DNA of 64,000 bases from a bacterium (lineage in GTDB: Bacteria; UBA8248): contig OY843592.1 in assembly GCA_963692865.2 (NCBI GenBank), positions 1,888,001 to 1,952,000 on the forward strand, in the 5' to 3' direction. Made by a program: the position numbers and the translations under genes. Shown here piece after piece: positions 24,893 through 37,388 of the stretch (position 1 is its first letter; each line of letters begins with the position of its first letter). The notes beneath the pieces are model-generated. The model was not told the origin of the DNA and searched no databases. It saw nothing but the letters and a program-made list of their open reading frames with translations.

Positions 24893-27379
24893 CTACTCAT
24901 CCACGGGGTGATAGGTCAGCTCGCTTCCTGGGGGAATATCCTCGTTGTCCCCGGTTGCTTCGTCTTCGTAGAGAGCATCCGGCGGGGCGTCTTCCGTGAA
25001 TTGCGCCTCATCGGCCTCGTCGTCTCGTGGAGCGGGGGCGGGTTTCGCGAGAAGCGGGGCGAGTTTCGCCTCGCGGCGGATTCTTTCCGGCAAACCGCTC
25101 CAGCGCCTCCTCACGCGCGCGTTCCCTATCGCCATGCCGAGCGCCTTCTTCGATCCGACGAAGACCGCCAGACGCTTCGCCCGCGTGAGGGCGGTGTAGA
25201 CGAGGTTTCTCTGCAGCATCGGGTAGTGCTGGGTGTGCAGCGGGATGACGACGGCGGGGTATTCGCTCCCCTGGCTCTTGTGGACGGTGATGGCGTAGGC
25301 GTGCATCACCTCGTCGAGCGCGCCGCGCGTGTATTCGACGAGGTTCGAATCGAAGGCCGCGCGAATGCTCCCCTCCTCGGTCGAGACGCTCTTGACGACG
25401 CCGATGTCGCCGTTGAAAACGTCTTTGTCGTAGTTGTTGCGCACCTGGATGAGTTTGTCGCCGGCGCGGAACGTGCGGCCTCCGCTCTGGAGGGCGGGGG
25501 CGTTTCCAGCAGGGTTGAGCGCCTCCTGCAGGCGCGTGTTCAGGCTCTGTACGCCGAGCACGCCGCGCTGCATGGGGGAGATGACCTGCAAGTCGGCGAT
25601 GGCGTCGACGCCGAACCGCTCGGGGATGCGCTCGCGGCAGAGTTCGACGATGAGGTCCGCGCAGCGCTCCGCCTCGTTCTCCTCGATGAAATAGTAATCG
25701 AGCGGCGCGTCTTCTTTCTCCCCCTTGCCGTTTCGGGGCATCTCGCCCCGGTTCACGCGGTGGGCGTTTTCGACGATCAGGCTCTCCTGCGCCTGGCGGA
25801 AGACCTCCGTGAGCCGCACCACGGGCAGGGATTCGGAAGTGATGGCGTCGCTCAGGACGTTGCCGGGCCCCACGGAGGGTAACTGGTCCACGTCGCCCAC
25901 CAGAACGAGCGTCGCCTGATCGGGCACGGCGCGCAGCAGGTGGGCCGTCAGGTGCACATCGAGCATCGAGGCCTCGTCGATGATCACGATGTCGCCGGTG
26001 AGCGGGTTTTCGGCGTCGCGCGTGAAGCCGCCCGAGTGCCAGCTGTATTCGAGCAATCTGTGGATGGTGGCCGCCTCGTGGCCGGTGACTTCCGATAAGC
26101 GCTTCGCCGCCCGCCCGGTCGGCGCGCCGAGGATGACCTGGAGTCCCAGTTTCGTATAGAGGTTGGTGACGGCGCTCACGATGGTCGTCTTGCCGGTGCC
26201 GGGGCCGCCCGTGACGATGAGCACCTTCTGCGTGAGCGCGCCCTCGATGGCCGCGCCCTGATCCTTGGTCGCCCTGCCGCCCTCGAGCGCGCGCCGGGCG
26301 AGATGGCCCAGGCGCTCTTTCGTCGTGGCGCCGGGCGCGCCCTGTCCTCGCATCGCGGCTTCGAGACGCGCCTCGTCGCGCGGCGTGCGGATGAGCGCCG
26401 CGAGACGGCGGGCGGCCTCGCATTCCGCGGCGTAGAGCGGACGCGCGTAGACGCGCTTGCCCTCGGCCGAAGCGAGGTTCTCGACCATGTTCGCCGACTC
26501 GATCACCACCGACCCGCCCCGGCCCAGGCTTCCCAGGACGGGGGCGAGGGCGCCCGGTTCGGTTTCCAGCATCTCGGCGGCGGTTTCGATCAGGTCGCCG
26601 TAGGGCAGGAAGCAGTGGCCCTCGCGCTCGGCGAGCTGGTCGAGCACGTAGACGGCCCCCGCCGCGAGGCGCTTGGGCGAGTCCGCGGGTATCCCCAGCC
26701 GCTGCGCGATGCGGTCCGCGCTCTTGAAGCCCACGCCGTGGATCTCCGCCGCCAGGCGGTAGGGGTCTTCGCGCAGGATGCGGATGGACGCCTCGCCGTA
26801 GGTTCTCAGGATTTTCTCCGAAAGATGCAGGGGCACGTCGTATTGCCGCAGGAACAGCATGATCTCCTTGACCTCGCTCTGGCTCTTCCAGCTCTCGACG
26901 ATGGCTTCGAGTTTCTTCGCGCCGAGGCCGGCGATTTCCGTGAGGCGCTCGGGTTGATTGTCGAGGATTTCGAGCGATTTCTCGCCGAAGCGCGCCACGA
27001 TGCGCTTGGCGAGAGCAGGGCCGATGTTCTTCACGATGCCCGACGCCAGGTACTTTTCGATTCCCTCGACCGTCGTGGGCGCCAGCGGGCGGGCGAGTTC
27101 GGCGTGGAACTGGCGGCCGAACCTGGGATGATCCTTCCAGGCGCCCTCGAAGCGCACGCGCTCGCCCTCGCGAATGGAGGAGAGGTAGCCCACCACGGCC
27201 ACGCGCGGGAAGTCCTCGTTGTCCGGCTGGACGAGCAGGACGGTGTAGCCGGTGTCCTCCGCGCGGAAGCGAATCCGCTCCACCGCGCCGGTCAACTCGG
27301 CGCCGTCTTGCGGGAAAAGGCCCGCCTGCGGGGGAGCGGTTCCTCTTCCGGGGCGAGGGGTTCTGGGTTTTCGCGTCAT
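24893..27379 (-). CDS. recD2: ATP-dependent RecD-like DNA helicase
   Basis: N-terminal OB/HhH region, TGGPGTGKTT, APTGRAAKRL, DEASM, AYAITVHKSQGSEY. Confidence 0.95.
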   Translation of the reverse strand: MTRKPRTPRPGRGTAPPQAGLFPQDGAELTGAVERIRFRAEDTGYTVLLVQPDNEDFPRVAVVGYLSSIREGERVRFEGAWKDHPRFGRQFHAELARPLAPTTVEGIEKYLASGIVKNIGPALAKRIVARFGEKSLEILDNQPERLTEIAGLGAKKLEAIVESWKSQSEVKEIMLFLRQYDVPLHLSEKILRTYGEASIRILREDPYRLAAEIHGVGFKSADRIAQRLGIPADSPKRLAAGAVYVLDQLAEREGHCFLPYGDLIETAAEMLETEPGALAPVLGSLGRGGSVVIESANMVENLASAEGKRVYARPLYAAECEAARRLAALIRTPRDEARLEAAMRGQGAPGATTKERLGHLARRALEGGRATKDQGAAIEGALTQKVLIVTGGPGTGKTTIVSAVTNLYTKLGLQVILGAPTGRAAKRLSEVTGHEAATIHRLLEYSWHSGGFTRDAENPLTGDIVIIDEASMLDVHLTAHLLRAVPDQATLVLVGDVDQLPSVGPGNVLSDAITSESLPVVRLTEVFRQAQESLIVENAHRVNRGEMPRNGKGEKEDAPLDYYFIEENEAERCADLIVELCRERIPERFGVDAIADLQVISPMQRGVLGVQSLNTRLQEALNPAGNAPALQSGGRTFRAGDKLIQVRNNYDKDVFNGDIGVVKSVSTEEGSIRAAFDSNLVEYTRGALDEVMHAYAITVHKSQGSEYPAVVIPLHTQHYPMLQRNLVYTALTRAKRLAVFVGSKKALGMAIGNARVRRRWSGLPERIRREAKLAPLLAKPAPAPRDDEADEAQFTEDAPPDALYEDEATGDNEDIPPGSELTYHPVDE

Positions 27380-27458
27380 CGGTCGTTCCTGGCGGCGTCC
27401 GGGCGGGCGGGGCGGTTGTCACCGGATGCGCGTGGCCGGGATTCGGGCGAGAGTCGGG

Positions 27459-28262
27459 TCAGTTCTCGCGCATTCCGGTATTTTTCGCTTCATTCCAGAG
27501 CGCTTCGAGCTCGTCGAGCGACACGTCTTCGGGCGAGAGTCCCCGCTCGCGCAGCGCCTTTTCCATATATTGGAAACGCGCGGTGAAGCGCCCGATGCAG
27601 GCGCGGGCCGCTCCTTCGGCGTTCACCCCGAGCTTCCGGGAGAGGTTCACGGCGGCGAAGAGGAAATCGCCCATCTCCTGCTCGATCGCCTCGCGGTCTC
27701 CTTGTCGCATCGCCGCCTTGAGTTCCGCCCACTCTTCTTCCACCTTCTCCGCCGCTCCGGCCGCGTCCGGCCAGTCGAAGCCCACGCGCGAGGCCTTTCC
27801 CTGAAGCCTCTGGGCGCGCTGGAGCGCGGGCATGGCGGCGGGCACGCCGTCGAGAATGGACGCCGCGCCGTTCTCATCCCCGGCGCGGGCCTTTCTCTTG
27901 CTGATCTCCCAGTTTCGGAGCACCTCGCCGCTGGTCTCGGCCAGGGCGTCCTCGAACACGTGGGGGTGGCGGTCTATCATCTTTTGCGCGAGGGCGCGGG
28001 CGGCCTCCTCGGCGTCGAAGAGGCCCTTCTCCTCGGCGAGGCGGCAGTGGAAGAGCACCTGGAGCAGGAGGTCGCCCAACTCTTCCTTGAGCATCGCCGG
28101 GTCGCCCGCCTCGATGGCCTCCATCACCTCGTAGGCCTCCTCGACGAGGTAGGGCTTGAGGCTCTGGTGGTCCTGTTCCTTGTCCCAGGGGCAGCCGTCG
28201 GGCGCTCTCAAGCGGGCCATCACCTCCACCGCGCGCTCGAAACCGCTTTTCTTCTCGCTCAA
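27459..28262 (-). CDS. mazG: Nucleoside triphosphate pyrophosphohydrolase
   Basis: LRAPDGCPWDKEQ, EELGDLLLQV, RHPHVF, GFDWP. Confidence 0.95.
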   Translation of the reverse strand: MSEKKSGFERAVEVMARLRAPDGCPWDKEQDHQSLKPYLVEEAYEVMEAIEAGDPAMLKEELGDLLLQVLFHCRLAEEKGLFDAEEAARALAQKMIDRHPHVFEDALAETSGEVLRNWEISKRKARAGDENGAASILDGVPAAMPALQRAQRLQGKASRVGFDWPDAAGAAEKVEEEWAELKAAMRQGDREAIEQEMGDFLFAAVNLSRKLGVNAEGAARACIGRFTARFQYMEKALRERGLSPEDVSLDELEALWNEAKNTGMREN

Positions 28263-28569
28263 GGCTCGGCCTCACGATTGGGGAATTCCGACGAGCGCAG
28301 TATACGCGCAACGCCCCCGGAGGGGCAACGAGCCTATGGGGCTGTAGCCGCATGATATGGGAGAATCACGAGTTTCCGAACGCAAGATGTCGTGACGGGG
28401 GAGGACGCGGGGGCGCGCCTGCGGAACAACGCATGATTTTCGTCTTTGCGCGTCGTCCCGGAATGGTCCCCCCTGGCCGGGGAAGGGAGGGTTCGCGACG
28501 TACGGAGGGGAAATTCATCCGTTCCGGGTTCCGGGCCGGAGTCGCCCGGAGGAGGGTACCGCCCCGTTG

Positions 28570-28847
28570 GGGGCCGTTGAAAAAGCCCTGTTCCGAGGTC
28601 GGGCGGACACACGGGTTCGCCCTGCGTTTCGTTCCGCAAAGGTTCGTTGTCAGACATTATATGTCTGACATATCATGCGACCCGTATTGGGAAGGCGAAA
28701 AGGCCGGGCCGCATGATATGCGGCCCCTACACCGACACCCGAATGAGGCGTGTAGCAGAGATAACCCCGAAGAGGGGTTGTCTGAACCCTCCGTGGTTGT
28801 CCTTTCTCAAACGAAGGCCTCGGACAGGCACGGAGGCCTGTCCCTAC
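28570..28847. repeat. Repeat cluster 8: IS-like end, inverted copy of element 6620-6691, GTAG-REPs
   Basis: GGGGCCGTTGAAAAAG; 28649-28721 is a near-exact reverse complement of 6620-6691; GGACAGGCACGGAGGCCTGTCCCTAC. Confidence 0.88.
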
Positions 28848-28872
28848 AAAACCCCGCAGGAACGGCATCCCC

Positions 28873-31800
28873 CTACCAGCGCAATGAGCCGCGCAGCGCC
28901 ACGCCGTGGACGGGGTCGTCGTTCTCGCGCTCGCGCACGTCGCCCTCGACGCTCATGCTGAGGCGTTCGCCCATCCTGAAACGACCGCCCAGGCGGTAGG
29001 CGCCGCCGCCGTCCTCGGACACCGAAAGGCCCGCGTAAGGCGTGAGCAGGCCGCCCCAGGCGTCGAGCCCGTAGCCCACCTCCGCGCGCACGCGGGGGTC
29101 GAGGTCCCCGACTTCCCCTTTCGCCAGGCGCGAGGCGTCCTCGATGCCCCACAGCCGCTCGGCGCCGCCCGCCGTCTCGCCCACCGAGGGCCGCACGGTG
29201 AGCGCAAGCCCACGGCCCGCCTTCCCCGGAGCGAAGCGGATCATGCCGCCCACGCCCCAGTCGGTCACGTCTTCCTCTTCATGCGCGAGGAGCCCGCGCG
29301 CCTTGAGCTCCAGCGTGAGGCCCGAGGCCGGGTTCGTGAAGCGCAGGCCGCCGCCCACCTCCACGCCGACCCCCTCGTCCGCGTCGCCTCCGTCATGGCG
29401 AAGGCCCGCCTCCACCGAAGGCGTGAACGCGCCGCCGTTCTTCATCGCCACCTCGCGCGAGGCTTCGAGCATCACCCGGAGCCGCGTCGTCTCCGCCGAT
29501 ATCGCCTCGACCCCGTCGGCCGCGTCCGCGTCCGTCTGCGCCACCAGGACGTCGGACTTCACCGCCAGGTCGAACCCGCCCGTCTTCGTTAATTCTCCCC
29601 GAAGCCCGAACGCCGCCATGCGCATCTCGATGTCGGTCTCGGCTTCGACCTTCTTGTCGACGTCTTTCTCCTCCACTTCCAGCGTCATCTCTCCCTGGCC
29701 CATTCCCAGGATGCCCCACATCGAGAGCCGCTCGTTCGCCCGGTAGCGCAGGTAGGGGTGCGCGCTCGTGAGCGTCGCCTCCATCTCGCCGCTGCCCCCG
29801 TTCTCGAAGCCGCCCTCGCCCGTGGCGTGCGAGAGCGCGAGGCCCATGAGGACGCTGTCCTTCTCGTAGTCCATCCCCAGCATGGCCGTCGTCACGTCGC
29901 CTTGGGTAGCGGCCTCTCCGCCCTCGAAGCTCGTCCGCGACCCGCGGCCCCAGATCGACCAGCGGCCGGCCGCCTCCCCGGCGTCCTTCGCCGAGGCCAG
30001 GTGGAACGAACCGCCCGAGAGGAGTTCGCTCACCGTCGTCTCGCGGTAGGTCTCCGGGGCGTCGCGCCCCGTCAGCCGGTTCTCGGCCCTCAAGCGCGCG
30101 AGGCCGCCGGAACCCCCGCCGTCCTGGGCGAAGGAGACGAAGCCCGCGCCTTTCTTCATCAGGAGACGCTCGGGATCCTCATCGAGGTTCACCGTCTGCC
30201 CGCCGAGCGTCATCTTCGCCCCGCTCGGAGCGGGCGCGTTCAGGCGGCCGGCGATCATCTCCACCGCCTGGCCCGCCGCAGCCCGGCCGAAGCGCGCCAG
30301 CCAGCCCCGCGCCGCCGCAAGGCTCTCCTTCGAAAGCGGGTCCCCGTAGATGCCCGCGCCCACGATCATGGAGTCGGTTATCGGTCCGACGCCGGGGATG
30401 TTGAATGTGAATTCAGTCTGGCGCGCATAGGTCACCTTCGGCACGTCGGCGCTGTCGCTGTCGTCGGCGGGGTTGTCGAAATAATACTGCACGAAGCCGC
30501 CGCCGGGTTTCTTCGCCGCCTCGATGATCTGCGGCAGGATGAGCTTGCCGGTGACGACGTCCCGCAGGGTGTCCGTGGGCTTCTGGTATTCGAACCTGTT
30601 CGGAAACCCCGCGTGAAGGTGCGTGTAGCCGTTCGGGTCCATCACGAACAGGTAGACGGAGCCGTGCTTCCAGGGCGGTAGCCTCATGACGCTCCTCGCG
30701 ATGCCGATGGCTTCGGTGGGTCTCTTCTCCAGGATTTCTTCGATGAAGTATTTTATCGCCCCGTTCACGAATTTCTTGAGCGTCCGGCGGTCCACCACCT
30801 CGTCGGCGCTGACCTCCGGGTCCGCAGGCGGCAGGGTTTCCTCCCCGAAGTCGGAATCCTGCAGGTCCAGGCCGGCGAGCATGATACCGGGGATGTCGGC
30901 GCCGTAACCCACGGCGTAGCCGCCGCCCTGTATGGGGCCGCCTTCCGGCCTCGGAAAGGCGCGGGTTCTGAACACCTCAGCCAGTTGGGCGGGCAGGGTG
31001 GACGGGTCGCTGACGTCGAATCCGACCGCGGCGAGGATCGCCCCGAAAACCTCGGGCTTGAGCGGCCTGCCCCCCATCGATATGTCGTCCGCGTCGAAGC
31101 TCAACCTGCCGTCGAGAAGAGAGACGGCGGAGAGGTGGATGGGGCCTGCCTTCCAGGGGCCCTCGTTCCGGGTGATGCACCCCGCGTAGCCTCCTTCCTC
31201 TTGCCCCGTGACGCTGTTGAAATAGTCTCTCCCCGCCAGGGCGAAGGCCTTCAGGTTCTCCGCGCTCCCCGCCGCCTGCGCGGCCGTAACGCTTGGAGTC
31301 TCCAGCGGGTTCTTCGGGACGCCCTGGCGCGGGCAGACGTCCTCGGACACGCCGCCCGGGTCTTCGTAGATCCCCGCGCCGAAGATGATCGGGTATTCGA
31401 GCGGGCTGCCGTCCTGCCTCTGCCCCCGAATGACGTGCTGGACCGCATAGGTCACCTTGGGGACCGTGGCGCTGTCCGTGTCGTCGTCCGGGTTGTCGAA
31501 ATAATACTTCACGAAGCCGCCGTCGGGGTTGGCGGTCGCCGCCTGGATGATCTGCGGCAGGATGAGCTTGCCGGTGACGGCGTCCCGCAGGGTATTCGTG
31601 GGGGCCTGGAGCTCGTACTTGTCCGGGAACGCCCCGTGGAAGAGCGTGTAGCCGGTGGGCTCCATGATGAAGAGGTAGACGGGGCCGTGCCGCCAGGGTC
31701 CGTTCAGGTCCCGGAGGACGCTCTTCGCCTTCACGAAGGCGCCGTGGCCTTCGGTCCTGTAGAGCTGGAGGACGTAGTCCTTCGCTCCGTTCACGAAGGT

Positions 31801-33393
31801 CTTGAGCGTCGCGCGGTCCACCACCTGGTCGGCCCGGATCGGCGGATCGCCGGGGTCGACGGTTTCCGGCGCGAGGTGTTGTGATTCCCTGATGTCGAGG
31901 CCGGCGACCAGGATGCCCGTGCCGCCTCCGACGGTGCGCTTGAAGCCGACGGCGTAGCCGCCGCCGGGCAGGGCGCCGCCGGCCGGCTTCCCGAAGGCGC
32001 CCGTCGTTCCCAGGGCGGCCGCGCCGGTCGCGGCGGCTATCGCCCTCCAGACGGCGGCCTTGAGCGGCCTGCCGCTCAAGGCCATATTGCCCGAGTGAAA
32101 GATCACCCTGCCGTCGAGGGAAATGGTGGCGGCGTAGGTGGCGCCGGACTTCCAGGGGCCCTCATGCCTGAAGAGGCACCTGCTGTACGTCAATTCCGGC
32201 CCCACGCGGACGCTCGCCAGATACTGTTTCCCCGCCAGGGCGAAATTCTTCAGGTTCTCCGCGCTCCCCGCCGCCTGGGCGGCCGTGACGTCCGGGGTCT
32301 CCAGCGTATTCACCGCCACGCCCGCCGGGCGCGGGCAGACGGCCTCGGACACCGCGCCCGGGTCCCTGTAGATCCCCGCGCCGATGATGAATGAATTTCC
32401 AGTAACTTCATTCCTGAGACTGCGGGCGAAGGTCACCTTCGGCACGTCGGCGCTGTCCGTGTCGTCGTCGGGGTTGTCGAAATAGTACTGCACGAAGCCG
32501 CCGCCGGGTTTCTTCGCCGCCTCGATGATCTGCGGCAGGATGAGCTTGCCGGTGACGACGTCCCGCAAGGTGTCCGTGGGGGTGGCGAGTTCGTATCGCC
32601 CCGGATCCCCCCCGTGAAAGAACGTGTAGCCGCTTTCATCCATCAGGAACAGGTAGATTTCGCCGTGCCTCCAATGCTCGGTCCTGAAGACGCTCCTCAG
32701 TTTTGAAAAGGTGTTGCTGGGGTCACGGAAGAAGTTTCCCATGAAAGTCCTCGCCCCGTTCACGAAGGCCTCGAGCGTCGCGCGGTCCACCACGTCCCTG
32801 GCCGTTACGGCCGGGATGGCGCCCGGGTCGAGGACTTCCTCCATCAGGCTGGATTCCTGGATATCGAGGCCGGCCACCACGATGTGCGGGAAGTTGGAAA
32901 GGCCGTCTATATAACCGACCGCATGCCCGCCTCCCGGCAAAGCGCCGCCGTCCGGATTGCTGAAACCCCTTTGAGTCAAACCGGCCGCGCCGGCGATCTG
33001 TCCCCAAAGGGCGGGGTTGAGCCGCCTGCCCCCGAGATTCGCATTGTTCGGGTGAAAGAGCAGTCTCCCGTCCGGAGTCAGGCCCGTGACGTAGATGGAG
33101 CCGGAATTCCAGTTCGGATGATTCTTGAAAAGACACAAAACGTATGAATTCGCAGGAAACGTCCTGGAACTCGCTATCAGGTCTTTCCCCGCCAGGGCGA
33201 AGGCCTTGAGGTTCGCGGCCGTGGGGTTCGCCGCCGCCTGGGCGGCCGTGACGCTCGGGGTCTCCAACGGATTCGGGTCGACGCCCGACGGGCGCGGGCA
33301 GGACGCCTGCGCGAAGGCGGCGGGCGCGCCGGACAGAACGCCGGCCAGCGCAAGGATGAGCGCGGTCAAAACCATTCGTCTCGGAAATTTCAT
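28873..33393 (-). CDS. Autotransporter-like outer-membrane protein with three tandem ~330-aa Cache-containing repeats
   Basis: Signal peptide; three CPR..ETP.VTAAQAA units, each ending in an sCache_2-like module (YLF.M...GYT..H..,GGFV.YYFDNP, PKVT, GAGIY); WLARFGR linker; amphipathic beta strands (GLRHDGGDA, EVGYG) ending in LRW. Confidence 0.82.
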   Translation of the reverse strand: MKFPRRMVLTALILALAGVLSGAPAAFAQASCPRPSGVDPNPLETPSVTAAQAAANPTAANLKAFALAGKDLIASSRTFPANSYVLCLFKNHPNWNSGSIYVTGLTPDGRLLFHPNNANLGGRRLNPALWGQIAGAAGLTQRGFSNPDGGALPGGGHAVGYIDGLSNFPHIVVAGLDIQESSLMEEVLDPGAIPAVTARDVVDRATLEAFVNGARTFMGNFFRDPSNTFSKLRSVFRTEHWRHGEIYLFLMDESGYTFFHGGDPGRYELATPTDTLRDVVTGKLILPQIIEAAKKPGGGFVQYYFDNPDDDTDSADVPKVTFARSLRNEVTGNSFIIGAGIYRDPGAVSEAVCPRPAGVAVNTLETPDVTAAQAAGSAENLKNFALAGKQYLASVRVGPELTYSRCLFRHEGPWKSGATYAATISLDGRVIFHSGNMALSGRPLKAAVWRAIAAATGAAALGTTGAFGKPAGGALPGGGYAVGFKRTVGGGTGILVAGLDIRESQHLAPETVDPGDPPIRADQVVDRATLKTFVNGAKDYVLQLYRTEGHGAFVKAKSVLRDLNGPWRHGPVYLFIMEPTGYTLFHGAFPDKYELQAPTNTLRDAVTGKLILPQIIQAATANPDGGFVKYYFDNPDDDTDSATVPKVTYAVQHVIRGQRQDGSPLEYPIIFGAGIYEDPGGVSEDVCPRQGVPKNPLETPSVTAAQAAGSAENLKAFALAGRDYFNSVTGQEEGGYAGCITRNEGPWKAGPIHLSAVSLLDGRLSFDADDISMGGRPLKPEVFGAILAAVGFDVSDPSTLPAQLAEVFRTRAFPRPEGGPIQGGGYAVGYGADIPGIMLAGLDLQDSDFGEETLPPADPEVSADEVVDRRTLKKFVNGAIKYFIEEILEKRPTEAIGIARSVMRLPPWKHGSVYLFVMDPNGYTHLHAGFPNRFEYQKPTDTLRDVVTGKLILPQIIEAAKKPGGGFVQYYFDNPADDSDSADVPKVTYARQTEFTFNIPGVGPITDSMIVGAGIYGDPLSKESLAAARGWLARFGRAAAGQAVEMIAGRLNAPAPSGAKMTLGGQTVNLDEDPERLLMKKGAGFVSFAQDGGGSGGLARLRAENRLTGRDAPETYRETTVSELLSGGSFHLASAKDAGEAAGRWSIWGRGSRTSFEGGEAATQGDVTTAMLGMDYEKDSVLMGLALSHATGEGGFENGGSGEMEATLTSAHPYLRYRANERLSMWGILGMGQGEMTLEVEEKDVDKKVEAETDIEMRMAAFGLRGELTKTGGFDLAVKSDVLVAQTDADAADGVEAISAETTRLRVMLEASREVAMKNGGAFTPSVEAGLRHDGGDADEGVGVEVGGGLRFTNPASGLTLELKARGLLAHEEEDVTDWGVGGMIRFAPGKAGRGLALTVRPSVGETAGGAERLWGIEDASRLAKGEVGDLDPRVRAEVGYGLDAWGGLLTPYAGLSVSEDGGGAYRLGGRFRMGERLSMSVEGDVRERENDDPVHGVALRGSLRW

Positions 33394-33694
33394 CGTGGGG
33401 CCTCCTGAGCCGAGCCCGCTTCATCGGGGCGGGAGCGGGACACGCTGTTTTCTTTCCAGAAGCGGAAAAGCGAGCGCGATAGTATGTCAACAAATTCGAA
33501 TGCGTTCAGATTACGCCAGAGAGCGCGTGGAGGCAAGTTTTTTCGGAAGTGGGCCGCGAGGGTGGTGCGAGCGCAAATAATCCCATGATATGGCATGATC
33601 GGACGATCAAAAGCGCAATATGTTGTGGTTGCGCTTGACATGTTCTTCGGGATGGGAGAAAGTGCGCTTTCAGGCCCATACACGAGGACCCCCC

Positions 33695-35590
33695 ATGACG
33701 AAAGAGACCCGCATACGCATACTGCCCGAGTCGCTCGCGAACCGGATCGCCGCGGGCGAGGTGGTGCAGCGCCCCGCCTCCGCCTTGAAGGAACTGGTGG
33801 AGAACAGCATCGACGCGGGCGCCTCCCGCGTGGAAATCGACCTGGAATCCGGCGGCGCCGCGCGCGTGCAGGTCGTCGACGACGGCCACGGCATGAGCGA
33901 GGACGACGCGCTGTTGTGTCTCGAGCGCCACGCGACGAGCAAGATAGCCACGGATTGGGACCTGGACCGCATCTCCACCCTGGGCTTCAGGGGCGAGGCG
34001 CTGCCGAGCATCGCCGCCGTTTCGAAGATGACCATCACCACGAGGAGGCCGGGAGACGCCTTGGGGACCGAGGTGCGCGTGGAGGGCGGCAAACTGCAGC
34101 GCGTCACCGAGATGGGCGCGGCGCCCGGCGCAAGGGTCGAGGTGCGCTCGTTGTTCTACAACGTGCCCGCGAGGCGCAAATTCCTGAAACGAAAAGAGAC
34201 CGAGCTCGTCCGCTGCCTGGAAGTGGCGAACCAGGCGGCCATGGCGAACCCGAACGTTTCGTTCGTCCTGCGCCACGGGCGGAGGACGCTGCTCGACCTG
34301 GACGGCTCCGGAGGGCTCCTGGCCCGAGCCGCCCAACTCGTGGGCGAGGCGGCGGCCTCTCATCTACTCAAGATTCCCCGCGCCGCGGCGGAGAACATAA
34401 CGTTCGGCGGCTGGGCGGGCGCGCCGGGGCTCAACCGCTCCACGCGCGACGCGCAGTATCTCTTCGTGAACGGACGCCCCATCCGGGACCGTCTTTTCGT
34501 CCACGCGGCGTATGCGGCCTACCGCAGCTTCCTGCCGGTGAAGCGTCACCCCGTCTTCATCCTCTTTCTGGACATGCCGCCCGAGGACGTGGACGTGAAC
34601 GTCCACCCCGCCAAGCAGGAGGTGCGCTTCCGCTTCGCGTCGGGCGTCTACGACCTCGTGCGCGAGAGCGTCGCCGCCGTGCTGGGCGCGCGGCCCGAGC
34701 GGGCGCGGCGCGATTTTGCCCACCAGGGCGCAGGCCGCGCGGCGGGGAACGCTACGCATTCGGAGGCGGCCGGTCCCGCCGGGGAGGAATCTTCCATCCC
34801 GCCGTCGACGCCCGCTTTGCTGGGCGGCGGGGGATATTTTGGAGACCGCTCCGCCGCCGGGGGGTACGGCGTCTCGGAGGCGGAGCCCGCGGCCGGCGTC
34901 GAAGGGTCGGCCTCCGCTCCGCCCCCGCCTGCGAGTTCCCCGCCCGAATCCCAGGCGCCCTCGCCGATTGAGCGTATGCTCGAACCCCCCCATCCGTCCG
35001 ATCCGGTCGTTCTCTCCGAATGCCGCTACCTCGGCCAGTGGGAGGAATGCTTTTTGCTGTTCGCCTCCCCGCAGGGGCTGGTGCTCGTCGATCAGCACGC
35101 CGCGCATGAGCGCGTGCTCTACAACCGCTTCCGCGACCAGTTCCGGGAGGGCCGCGTGGACAGCCAGGCGTGCCTGGTGCCCGAGGAGATACGGCTCCGC
35201 CCCGAGGAGGCGCTCGGCATCGAGGCGCACCACGAGGATCTGCTGCGCTCGGGCTTCGAACTCGAGTGCGCGGCTCCCGGGGAATACCGGATTCGCGCCG
35301 TGCCCGCGCTCCTCGCGGACAGGGATCCCGCAGGCGCGGTGCGTCAGGTCGCGGAGGGTCTGGCGGATATGGAGCAGCCCGTGAGCTTCGCGGATCTCAT
35401 CGACGGCATCATCGCGAGGATGAGTTGCAAGGGCGCGGTGAAGGCGGCGCAGGCCATGCGCCCCGAGCAGGCGGCCGCTCTCGTCGAGGAGCTCGAAAAG
35501 ACGCCGGGCAGGTGGACGTGCCCGCACGGGCGGCCCGTTATGCTCGTGATGGGCGCAGACCCCGTGAAGAGGCGCTTTCTCAGGAGTTGA
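33695..35590 (+). CDS. mutL: DNA mismatch repair protein MutL
   Basis: IAAGEVVQRPAS, HATSKI, GFRGEALPSI, DQHAAHER, CPHGRP. Confidence 0.97.
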   Translation: MTKETRIRILPESLANRIAAGEVVQRPASALKELVENSIDAGASRVEIDLESGGAARVQVVDDGHGMSEDDALLCLERHATSKIATDWDLDRISTLGFRGEALPSIAAVSKMTITTRRPGDALGTEVRVEGGKLQRVTEMGAAPGARVEVRSLFYNVPARRKFLKRKETELVRCLEVANQAAMANPNVSFVLRHGRRTLLDLDGSGGLLARAAQLVGEAAASHLLKIPRAAAENITFGGWAGAPGLNRSTRDAQYLFVNGRPIRDRLFVHAAYAAYRSFLPVKRHPVFILFLDMPPEDVDVNVHPAKQEVRFRFASGVYDLVRESVAAVLGARPERARRDFAHQGAGRAAGNATHSEAAGPAGEESSIPPSTPALLGGGGYFGDRSAAGGYGVSEAEPAAGVEGSASAPPPPASSPPESQAPSPIERMLEPPHPSDPVVLSECRYLGQWEECFLLFASPQGLVLVDQHAAHERVLYNRFRDQFREGRVDSQACLVPEEIRLRPEEALGIEAHHEDLLRSGFELECAAPGEYRIRAVPALLADRDPAGAVRQVAEGLADMEQPVSFADLIDGIIARMSCKGAVKAAQAMRPEQAAALVEELEKTPGRWTCPHGRPVMLVMGADPVKRRFLRS

Positions 35591-35708
35591 GCCGATTTTT
35601 CGCGCAAGGAGCCGGTAACGCTCTTGACACCCGCGCCCGCGCGCAACACAATGGCGAGGCAAGAAAAAGGGGGTCATCGAGGGAATCTTTGATGCCGCAT
35701 CCTTTTGA

Positions 35709-37388
<1,680 letters not shown>

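Follow-up and report, generated by a model that had tools for sequence, protein, structure and literature searches.

The window analysed here is a stretch of 64,000 nucleotides of bacterial DNA (assembly GCA_963692865.2, contig OY843592.1, positions 1,888,001 to 1,952,000 of the forward strand), and window coordinates count from its first letter. At 28873..33393, on the reverse strand, it carries a gene for an autotransporter whose passenger is an array of three Cache units. According to the cited part of PMC4822843, no family of extracellular sensor domains is larger than Cache, whose members serve signal-transduction proteins in all sub-families except SMP_2. The units of the window protein match sCache_2 in fold and sequence, and neither transmembrane helices nor an output domain accompany them, so that the protein is an sCache_2 member by fold and sequence and not a sensor by architecture. 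By its signal peptide, its PF03797 barrel and its modelled pore helix it is a type Va (classical) autotransporter. We propose, at chances that we consider evenly balanced, that it is a non-signalling, multivalent surface binder mounted on this translocator and used in a sponge-associated life style.

Cache units and their predicted pocket

The features of the gene are as follows, all on the reverse strand of the window, with residues given in amino acids (aa) and model confidence as the predicted local distance difference test (pLDDT).

28873..33393, reverse strand: whole gene, a single open frame of 1506 codons plus stop with an ATG start; Pfam matches to Cache (three times) and Autotransporter
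33310..33393, reverse strand: Sec-type signal peptide, aa 1-28, read from the sequence, with predicted cleavage between AFA and QA
32338..33309, reverse strand: unit 1, aa 29-352; module A with Cys32/Cys87; sCache_2-like module B with Tyr247, His260, Tyr303 and Lys319; Pfam stretch 231-344; phmmer alignment to 4K08
31336..32337, reverse strand: unit 2, aa 353-686; module A with Cys353/Cys406; module B with Tyr573, His586, Tyr630 and Lys646; AlphaFold model with pLDDT 91.8
30331..31335, reverse strand: unit 3, aa 687 to about 1021; module A with Cys687/Cys739; module B with Tyr914, His927, Tyr970 and Lys986; model residues 1-335, pLDDT about 90
32437..32502, reverse strand: pocket strand and acidic loop of unit 1, GGFVQYYFDNPDDDTDSADVPK, aa 298-319; D, P, D, D and K invariant in 68/68 sequences
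31456..31521, reverse strand: pocket strand and acidic loop of unit 2, aa 625-646, from the alignment of 68 sequences
30436..30501, reverse strand: pocket strand and acidic loop of unit 3, DNPADDSDS variant, aa 965-986, from the same alignment
30241..30330, reverse strand: linker alpha-helix, aa 1022-1051; helix by DSSP at model residues 336-365, placed by the model within the barrel pore
29971..30234, reverse strand: low-confidence stretch of about 88 aa, aa 1054-1141, between pore helix and strand 1; pLDDT below 50 at model residues 368-455
29227..29964, reverse strand: predicted 12-stranded autotransporter beta-barrel, aa 1144-1389; 12 DSSP strands at model residues 458-701; PF03797 at 8e-11
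28876..29226, reverse strand: C-terminal extension of 117 aa, aa 1390-1506, with six more predicted strands (DSSP), ending LRGSLRW

The protein starts MKFPRR, and a basic n-region, a hydrophobic core and the AFA/QA site can be read in its first 28 residues, which also contain the sole 19-residue Kyte-Doolittle window with a mean above 1.6; elsewhere the maximum amounts to 1.26 and therefore no transmembrane helix is indicated. The three units that follow the signal peptide are 55-57% identical in pairwise comparisons over 302-316 aligned columns, which is well above chance. A preliminary description of this DNA had listed a signal peptide and three units of about 330 aa with two cysteines each, and the open reading frame (ORF) and the pairwise identities agree with it, also in the placing of the units. 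There are no more than six cysteines in the whole protein, one pair in each unit (32/87, 353/406 and 687/739), and both cysteines of module A are invariant in all 68 sequences of the alignment used throughout for conservation, which comprises the three units of the window protein and 65 relatives at an overall identity of 39-76%. Cys32 was considered as a lipoprotein cysteine and ruled out, as the CPRP motif at which it stands also begins units 2 and 3 and the family consensus shows no conserved lipobox.

Pfam searches with the whole protein reported dCache_2 (2.6e-24) and sCache_2 (5.8e-19), each in three stretches, and Autotransporter PF03797 (1.8e-9, aa 1147-1345), while NCBIfam added weak extra matches only. 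Neither Pfam nor NCBIfam matched a kinase, methyl-accepting chemotaxis protein (MCP), HAMP or GGDEF/cyclase domain in the protein, and together with the hydropathy scan this bears out the earlier statement that transmembrane helices and kinase or MCP output are absent.

Unit 2 was modelled alone with AlphaFold, giving a pLDDT of 91.8 and a predicted template modelling score of 0.89. Foldseek returned four matches for this model at E<=0.001 (4EXO, 2QHK, 5G4Y and 4K08; E 7e-6 to 2e-4), all of them sCache_2 chemoreceptor domains. Module B (residues about 172-333 of the unit 2 model) superposed on 4EXO/2QHK and on 4K08 with Z 14.4 at 23% identity and a root mean square deviation (rmsd) of 2.5-2.6 over 132-133 residues (4EXO: rmsd 2.5, 132 aligned; 4K08: rmsd 2.6, 133/144 aligned) and on TlpB with Z 12.6, and the unit 3 model gave Z 15.7 with 2QHK and Z 14.7 with 4K08. 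In these structure comparisons the modelled module B has the long N-terminal helix and the PAS-like sheet that characterize a Cache domain. In agreement with this, sCache_2 PF17200 scored 69 bits against a cut-off of 25 bits in the three stretches. Sequence comparison with the Protein Data Bank (PDB) was less informative: the family profile gave four chance-level matches (E 0.5-0.72) and no Cache or autotransporter entry among them, the single sequence found 4K08 alone (E 0.17), and the ESM Atlas gave 'Cache domain' and nothing further.

Module A of all three units has no Pfam family up to E 10. Its profile nevertheless matches that of module B (hhalign probability 96.2%, E 2.4e-9, 58 columns), and its modelled fold resembles that of the Cache portions in 5ERE (Z 9.2) and DvhD (Z 7.5); thus, two modules derived from sCache_2 follow one another in each unit. 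Module A is, by its profile, a diverged copy of module B carrying the invariant cysteine pair, which presumably forms a disulfide. The preliminary description had called both halves of each unit Cache-like, as the models, the fold searches and the profile-profile match now confirm. A similar tandem is found in dCache_2 (PF08269), whose origin by duplication of sCache_2 has been proposed (PMC4822843, in the part cited). In contrast to dCache_2 proper, the window unit matches the profile in part, scoring 86 bits, above the cut-off, but over profile positions 80-184 of 298 only, and its module A alone falls in no Pfam family. Solved double-Cache domains superpose on module B only (model residues about 170-334) and never on the whole unit.

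The best described pocket of this kind is that of PscD-SD, for which the cited part of PMC5062169 reports that the carboxylate of the ligand is hydrogen-bonded by Tyr90, His103, Tyr143 and Lys156 and that Trp92 and Trp145 sandwich the ligand, its authors naming Tyr90, His103 and Lys156 as the critical set. The corresponding positions, numbered within unit 2, and their residues in the alignment are:

Tyr221, corresponding to PscD Tyr90: Y in 68/68
His234, corresponding to PscD His103: H in 67/68
Tyr278, corresponding to PscD Tyr143: Y in 68/68
Lys294, corresponding to PscD Lys156: K in 68/68
position 223, corresponding to PscD Trp92: F in 26, Y in 24, A in 7, G in 7 and V in 2 of 68
position 280, corresponding to PscD Trp145: F in 58, W in 5 and Y in 5 of 68

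The register of the second tyrosine, the phenylalanine and the lysine was taken from the phmmer alignment to 4K08. The residues that bind the carboxylate in sCache_2 are therefore retained at 67-68/68, and the histidine, tyrosines and lysine occur in module B of all three units, both as had been described before. The pocket differs from that of PscD in having phenylalanine, tyrosine or small residues for the tryptophan pair and in the loop between the last tyrosine and the lysine (strands 3-4), which is three residues longer than that of PscD and contains Asp281, Pro283, Asp285 and Asp288, each in 68/68 sequences, so that the acidic pattern D-x-P-x-D-x-x-D is invariant. The loop sequence DNPDDDTDS, reported earlier for every unit, was found in the first two units, and unit 3 has the variant DNPADDSDS. 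Since the predicted carboxylate site adjoins this invariant acidic loop, the ligand might carry a positive group besides its carboxylate, or a cation might complete the site.

The sCache_2 chemoreceptor domains PscD-SD (5G4Y/5G4Z), Adeh_3718 (4K08), a Vibrio parahaemolyticus MCP (2QHK/4EXO) and TlpB (3UB6) thus share the fold with the window units at 20-25% identity and Z 14.4-15.7. Unlike those domains, the window units have no transmembrane helices on either side and no MCP, kinase or cyclase output attached, and they are arrayed in tandem on a module for secretion and anchoring.

Translocator and its C-terminal extension

Unit 3 and the C-terminal part (aa 687-1506) were modelled with an alignment of 65 one-unit relatives (mean pLDDT 76.2). 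Foldseek found as best matches of this model BrkA 3QQ2 (E 1.2e-9, TM-score 0.82-0.86), Hbp, EstA, EspP, NalP, AaaA and AIDA-I, and VIA-align gave Z 29.6 and an rmsd of 2.2 over 262/279 residues for NalP 1UYN, Z 27-29 for Hbp, AIDA-I, EspP and EstA, and Z 25.7 with an rmsd of 2.1 for BrkA, aligned to model residues 457..703. PF03797 was found at 1.8e-9 and 8e-11, over its 26-bit cut-off. The twelve strands at model residues 458-701 (aa 1144-1387) are predicted to form the canonical barrel, and because 240-270 residues fit 12-stranded barrels at an rmsd of 2.1-2.7, these first twelve strands would close on themselves. The VIA-align matches to NalP, EspP, Hbp and AIDA-I begin at model residues 328-337 and end at 703-705; they include the helix at 336-365, and the helix of aa 1022-1051 thus occupies, in the model, the position of the pore helix.

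Type Va autotransporters with globular passengers such as EstA (3KVN) and AaaA (9OQA) have the signal peptide, the N-terminal passenger, the pore helix and the 12-stranded barrel in common with the window protein, and the passenger of EstA likewise consists of alpha/beta globular domains and not of a beta-helix. In contrast to the enzymes carried by EstA and AaaA, the passenger of the window protein is a repeat array of putative binding modules.

The barrel had been described as C-terminal and ending in tryptophan. The type Va translocator fold is in agreement with this (NalP, Z 29.6), but it is not a plain terminal barrel: modelled strand 12 ends MIRF, and the terminal tryptophan of LRGSLRW lies 117 residues beyond it, at the end of a conserved extension. 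Classical type Va proteins differ in this respect and also lack the insert of about 88 residues, and the terminal tryptophan of the window protein would not be a canonical barrel end. The extension has a pLDDT of 35-76 and matches no Pfam family up to E 10; its derivation from the barrel strands by internal duplication was considered and is unsupported (hhalign probability 1.7%). A profile of the extension matched 1898 representative proteins at E<=0.001 and 399 at E<=1e-10, extending to the C-terminus in 144 of the 150 proteins listed, whose lengths range from 68 aa (fragments) to 4863 aa. Among 148 new proteins bearing it, 113 match the barrel profile and have no Cache unit, which indicates that the extension is a general variant of the translocator and not specific to Cache passengers. 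Names were looked up for ten extension-bearing proteins, none of which is named.

Relatives, habitat and proposed function

A search with the full protein found 131 relatives among 8000 candidates scored, and the barrel was recognized with our own profiles in 103 of the 120 listed. The number of module-B copies among the 102 barrel-bearing relatives with at least one unit was one in 69, two in 15, three in 15 and four in 3. Their source names read only 'autotransporter domain-containing protein' or 'hypothetical protein'. The use of the fold had been called undescribed, and this holds in so far as no publication on an autotransporter with a Cache passenger was found in a search of article texts; the single paper that pairs autotransporters with Cache domains is unrelated by its title and abstract, 'passenger domain' co-occurred with 'Cache' in none of the literature matches listed, and a paper on sponge symbionts and autotransporters deals with an inverse autotransporter. 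The family itself, however, is already in databases under generic names.

The unit also occurs on other carriers. Searches with a single unit gave a C-terminal sorting domain of the type IX secretion system (T9SS) in 8 of 120 relatives listed and, in a second search, in 11 of 120; for two of these relatives the source record itself gives the name 'T9SS type A sorting domain-containing protein', and our own scan confirmed the sorting domain (TIGR04183, 5.5e-10 and 7.8e-8). One relative of 360 aa (P0148) consists of a signal peptide and one unit and nothing more, and another (P0136) combines one unit with a C-terminal domain of about 200 aa that has no assigned family. No signalling output domain is found among the precomputed Pfam domains of the relatives listed in the full-protein and unit searches, and the earlier statement that no such output is attached thus extends from the window protein to all of them. 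As the unit is found on a barrel, on a T9SS domain or free, it is a portable extracellular module, and this is the strongest argument for a passenger acting outside the cell. Two further relatives of 412-418 aa (P0185 and P0159) have one unit, no barrel and a short conserved tail ending ATWGQIKSRF; they gave no NCBIfam match and a weak dCache_2 match as their sole Pfam result, and the tail could be an unrecognised sorting or docking signal.

Scanning species-representative genomes yielded at least 482 confirmed relatives among at least 516 pattern matches, from which 79 loci with 81 family ORFs were kept; 71 ORFs (>=780 aa, ending W or F) entered a tree and 10 were dropped. By their record titles the relatives come from at least nine phyla and in large part from bins with a sponge label, the 71 ORFs being assigned as follows:

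Pseudomonadota, 38
Gemmatimonadota, 6
Nitrospirota, 5
Binatota, 4
Nitrospinota, 4
Thermodesulfobacteriota, 3
Myxococcota, 2
Chloroflexota, 1
Cyanobacteriota, 1
no label, 7

A quick maximum-likelihood tree placed the window protein in a clade with four Nitrospinota-labelled and five unlabelled rows (support of 99 in the Shimodaira-Hasegawa-like approximate likelihood ratio test, SH-aLRT). The labels require 13 changes on this tree, compared to a minimum of 8 and a mean of 25.4 after shuffling, which fits mostly vertical clusters plus some exchange. The labels used by submitters (Binatia, Deltaproteobacteria, Thermodesulfobacteriota), binning errors or paralogy could give an equal pattern, and we claim neither donor nor direction. 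Family members were also seen in a 2649-bp contig titled Dehalococcoidia and in the bin of a Prochlorococcaceae cyanobacterium. Dehalococcoidia are usually regarded as a lineage without outer membrane, and that occurrence is probably a binning error.

All relatives are titled as metagenome bins, among them Nitrospinota, Nitrospirales, Binatia, Gemmatimonadota (Ca. Palauibacter), Alpha- and Gammaproteobacteria, Ca. Poriferihabitaceae and Ca. Porisulfidus. The latter two are named in the abstracts of sponge genome notes (PMC12859430, PMC12988363), the cited part of PMC10469786 names irciniicola and rhopaloidicola as sister species of Ca. Palauibacter, and the bin prefixes RHO, COS and IRC appear to match sponge genera given in the part of PMC8163846 that we cite. 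In a run labelled 'sponge metagenome', 161 contigs cover 30/30 bins of the gene (30 contigs at >=99%, 65 at 95-99% and 66 at 90-95% identity). Two metatranscriptome libraries of one study contain 14 and 9 contigs covering 15 and 19 of the 30 bins, mostly at 90-99% identity, a weak hint at transcription of a close relative of the window gene; no weight was given to the stretches that these contigs leave uncovered. Contigs of both these libraries join 32337 to 33306 and thus represent a form without exactly unit 1, and contigs of the sponge metagenome hold junctions of forms with one more unit; such unit-exact junctions indicate that the number of units varies by whole units between strains or paralogues. 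Cache Pfam domains are enriched in sponge-associated Thaumarchaeota, for which host surface recognition has been proposed (PMC7848895, in the part cited); this is a precedent for the idea of host recognition, not for the window protein.

By homology, the Sec signal peptide would carry the protein into the periplasm, the C-terminal 12-stranded barrel would insert in the outer membrane and enclose the linker helix in its pore, and the N-terminal passenger would be displayed at the cell surface. The passenger is predicted to consist of three beads with two successive Cache modules in each, of which the second is an sCache_2 module with the PscD-type Tyr/His/Tyr/Lys set and the invariant acidic loop predicted to be inserted over the pocket. 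Given that the protein lacks a transmembrane helix and any output domain, it would have to act through binding as such. Its ligand would carry a carboxylate and could be a metabolite of small size, zwitterionic or acidic, or else an acidic moiety of a matrix polymer; a cation is probably bound by the acidic loop. The protein may serve attachment or recognition within the sponge-host environment where the family mainly occurs. The preliminary description had suggested a small-molecule binder acting as a metabolite sponge, a ligand-gated adhesin or a host-interaction factor, each of which would be a conceivable role. We infer surface exposure of the passenger from its architecture and from the T9SS-linked homologues, since the fusion of homologous units to sorting domains supports extracellular display; the four sister genes whose translocator of the same type bears fn3 passengers speak for it as well. 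Intimin/invasin arrays of Ig domains and the fn3/cadherin proteins enriched in sponge symbionts (PMC8163846, in the part cited) likewise show a variable number of beads on an outer-membrane barrel, but instead of Ig-like or fn3 domains the beads of the window protein are Cache modules of the small-molecule type, whose pocket is conserved.

Several points weigh against the proposal of a surface binder. The predicted class of ligand depends on four conserved residues, and the register of the first tyrosine and the histidine was placed by a 13-residue spacing equal to that of PscD, not by a printed alignment; the tryptophan pair of PscD is replaced, so the pocket is not that of a C2/C3 carboxylate sensor. 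The translocator is atypical, with its low-confidence insert of about 88 residues and the extension of 117 aa past strand 12. Large disulfide loops hinder type Va secretion, and the cysteines of a pair lie 52-55 residues apart within each unit. A conserved neighbour was sought by clustering the ORFs of the 79 loci, in which the best non-self family reached 10/79, and gene context therefore offers no functional hint. The contigs of the RNA libraries may include DNA and stem from a relative at 90-99% identity, not from the exact gene, and the sponge association is an informal reading of record titles, one run label and papers.

Among other explanations, extracellular solute capture is rather unlikely in our judgement. 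In that case the Cache units, tethered or cleaved, would trap a scarce metabolite and pass it to an uptake system, as a 'metabolite sponge' resembling haemophores. The conserved small-molecule pocket residues, the free secreted homologue P0148 with its one unit and the capacity gained by multivalency all suit such a role, yet the clustering that left the best non-self family at 10/79 loci revealed no conserved neighbouring transporter or TonB-dependent receptor, the gain would be small as porins pass small carboxylates freely, and an informal reading of the linker sequence showed no motif for cleavage of the passenger. We consider it unlikely that the array is a structural stalk or protective coat, in which the Cache fold would be a rigid bead without specific ligand, stabilised by the acidic loop and the cysteine pair in calcium-rich seawater and masking the cell or spacing it from the host. 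A purely structural bead is not expected to retain the four ligand-contact residues of sCache_2 at 67-68/68 over sequences that are 39-76% identical, even though barrel-bearing relatives have anything from 1 to 4 units, whole units are inserted or deleted in the metagenome and RNA-library contigs, sister autotransporters of the source genome bear bead arrays of fn3 domains, and the invariant aspartate cluster would be compatible with a structural Ca2+ site.

A passenger that is not exported, for instance because disulfide-bonded globular units are blocked, would be a periplasmic array on an outer-membrane tether and would bind its ligand in the periplasm, where Cache domains are normally found (PMC4822843, in the part cited); the invariant cysteine pair of each unit and the atypical translocator point in that direction. 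Such an array seems very unlikely given that homologous units bear T9SS sorting domains, which route cargo over the outer membrane, that the linker helix is modelled in the pore like those of NalP and EspP, and that EstA and AaaA, among the best structural matches, export globular passengers that are not beta-helical. An assembly artefact or a decaying gene without function is extremely improbable: repeats are prone to mis-assembly and the source bin has 6.69% estimated contamination, but the frame is intact over 1506 codons, the source genome has two paralogues at 86-90% identity, full-length relatives occur in many genomes and independent runs contain the sequence at >=99% identity.

Going beyond the proposed surface binder, one may picture the double-Cache unit as a lectin-like, cation-dependent module transferred between sponge symbionts of many phyla and mounted on any export system (type Va, T9SS or plain secretion), which would bind an acidic group of the sponge matrix with its Asp-loop cation for docking or 'self' recognition, the 117-aa extension enlarging or modifying the channel for disulfide-bonded beads; this extended version we regard as distinctly unlikely. 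The sCache_2 pocket would in that case go back to sensors for carboxylates the size of acetate or pyruvate, and pyruvylated or uronic-acid glycan epitopes of the sponge aggregation factor would be examples of such acidic groups. If binding is true, surface binders that are not sensors would be a new functional class for Cache domains, here seen as a fold with its ligand-contact residues intact, detached from signalling and arrayed on surface-export modules in many phyla that apparently share the sponge holobiont. It would also offer a candidate, suited to expression, for the means by which uncultured sponge symbionts attach to their host or become recognised, a question that the cited part of PMC8163846 approaches through the enrichment of 'eukaryote-like' domains and that of PMC7848895 through the enrichment of Cache domains in sponge Thaumarchaeota. 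The unit is confidently predicted to fold as a soluble protein of 330 aa, which should make ligand screens practical.

Source genome and gene surroundings

The source genome comprises 4.15 Mb on 8 contigs. Besides the window gene it has two further Cache autotransporters with four units each, 86-90% identical to that of the window, and four other genes that share the translocator at 44-77% identity over aa ~970/1025-1506:

C1:1177472-1183159, forward strand: paralogue 1, four Cache units
C4:1-5605, forward strand: paralogue 2, four Cache units, running off the contig start
C1:3058922-3065590, reverse strand: sister autotransporter with the shared translocator
C1:772246-778467, reverse strand: sister autotransporter with the shared translocator
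C1:3219709-3223959, reverse strand: sister autotransporter with the shared translocator
C1:235762-240351, forward strand: sister autotransporter with the shared translocator

The passengers of these four sister autotransporters consist of 11 or 9 fn3 domains, or of fn3 together with Calx-beta and PPC domains, and Pfam did not report PF03797 in any of them at E<=0.01. The Cache unit was found in 13/51 genomes of the phylum of the window, including that of the window itself, all in one genus; it is present in 12/22 other members of this genus and in 0/28 genomes of 14 other genera, and this patchy presence indicates an accessory gene.

Rfam gave no match at gathering score over the whole window. 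A scan of 28100-33800 for promoters and terminators found 2 promoter-like sites, both off the 5' side of the gene, and 5 terminator-like sites compared to 4.4 expected, an uninformative outcome. Judged from their translations, the flanking ORFs (24893-28262 on the reverse and 33620-37388 on the forward strand) look like housekeeping genes (RecD-like helicase, MazG-like pyrophosphohydrolase, MutL-like and IMP-dehydrogenase-like proteins), with nothing in them pointing to an operon with the autotransporter. In the fn3/Calx-beta autotransporter at C1:235762-240351, the longest frame opens, at positions 263 to about 450 of its locus, with seven tandem PNSELRT heptapeptides, which correspond to a DNA repeat of 21 bp and precede the likely signal peptide; instead of being coding, this stretch may be a repeat upstream of the gene, and its copy number might vary.

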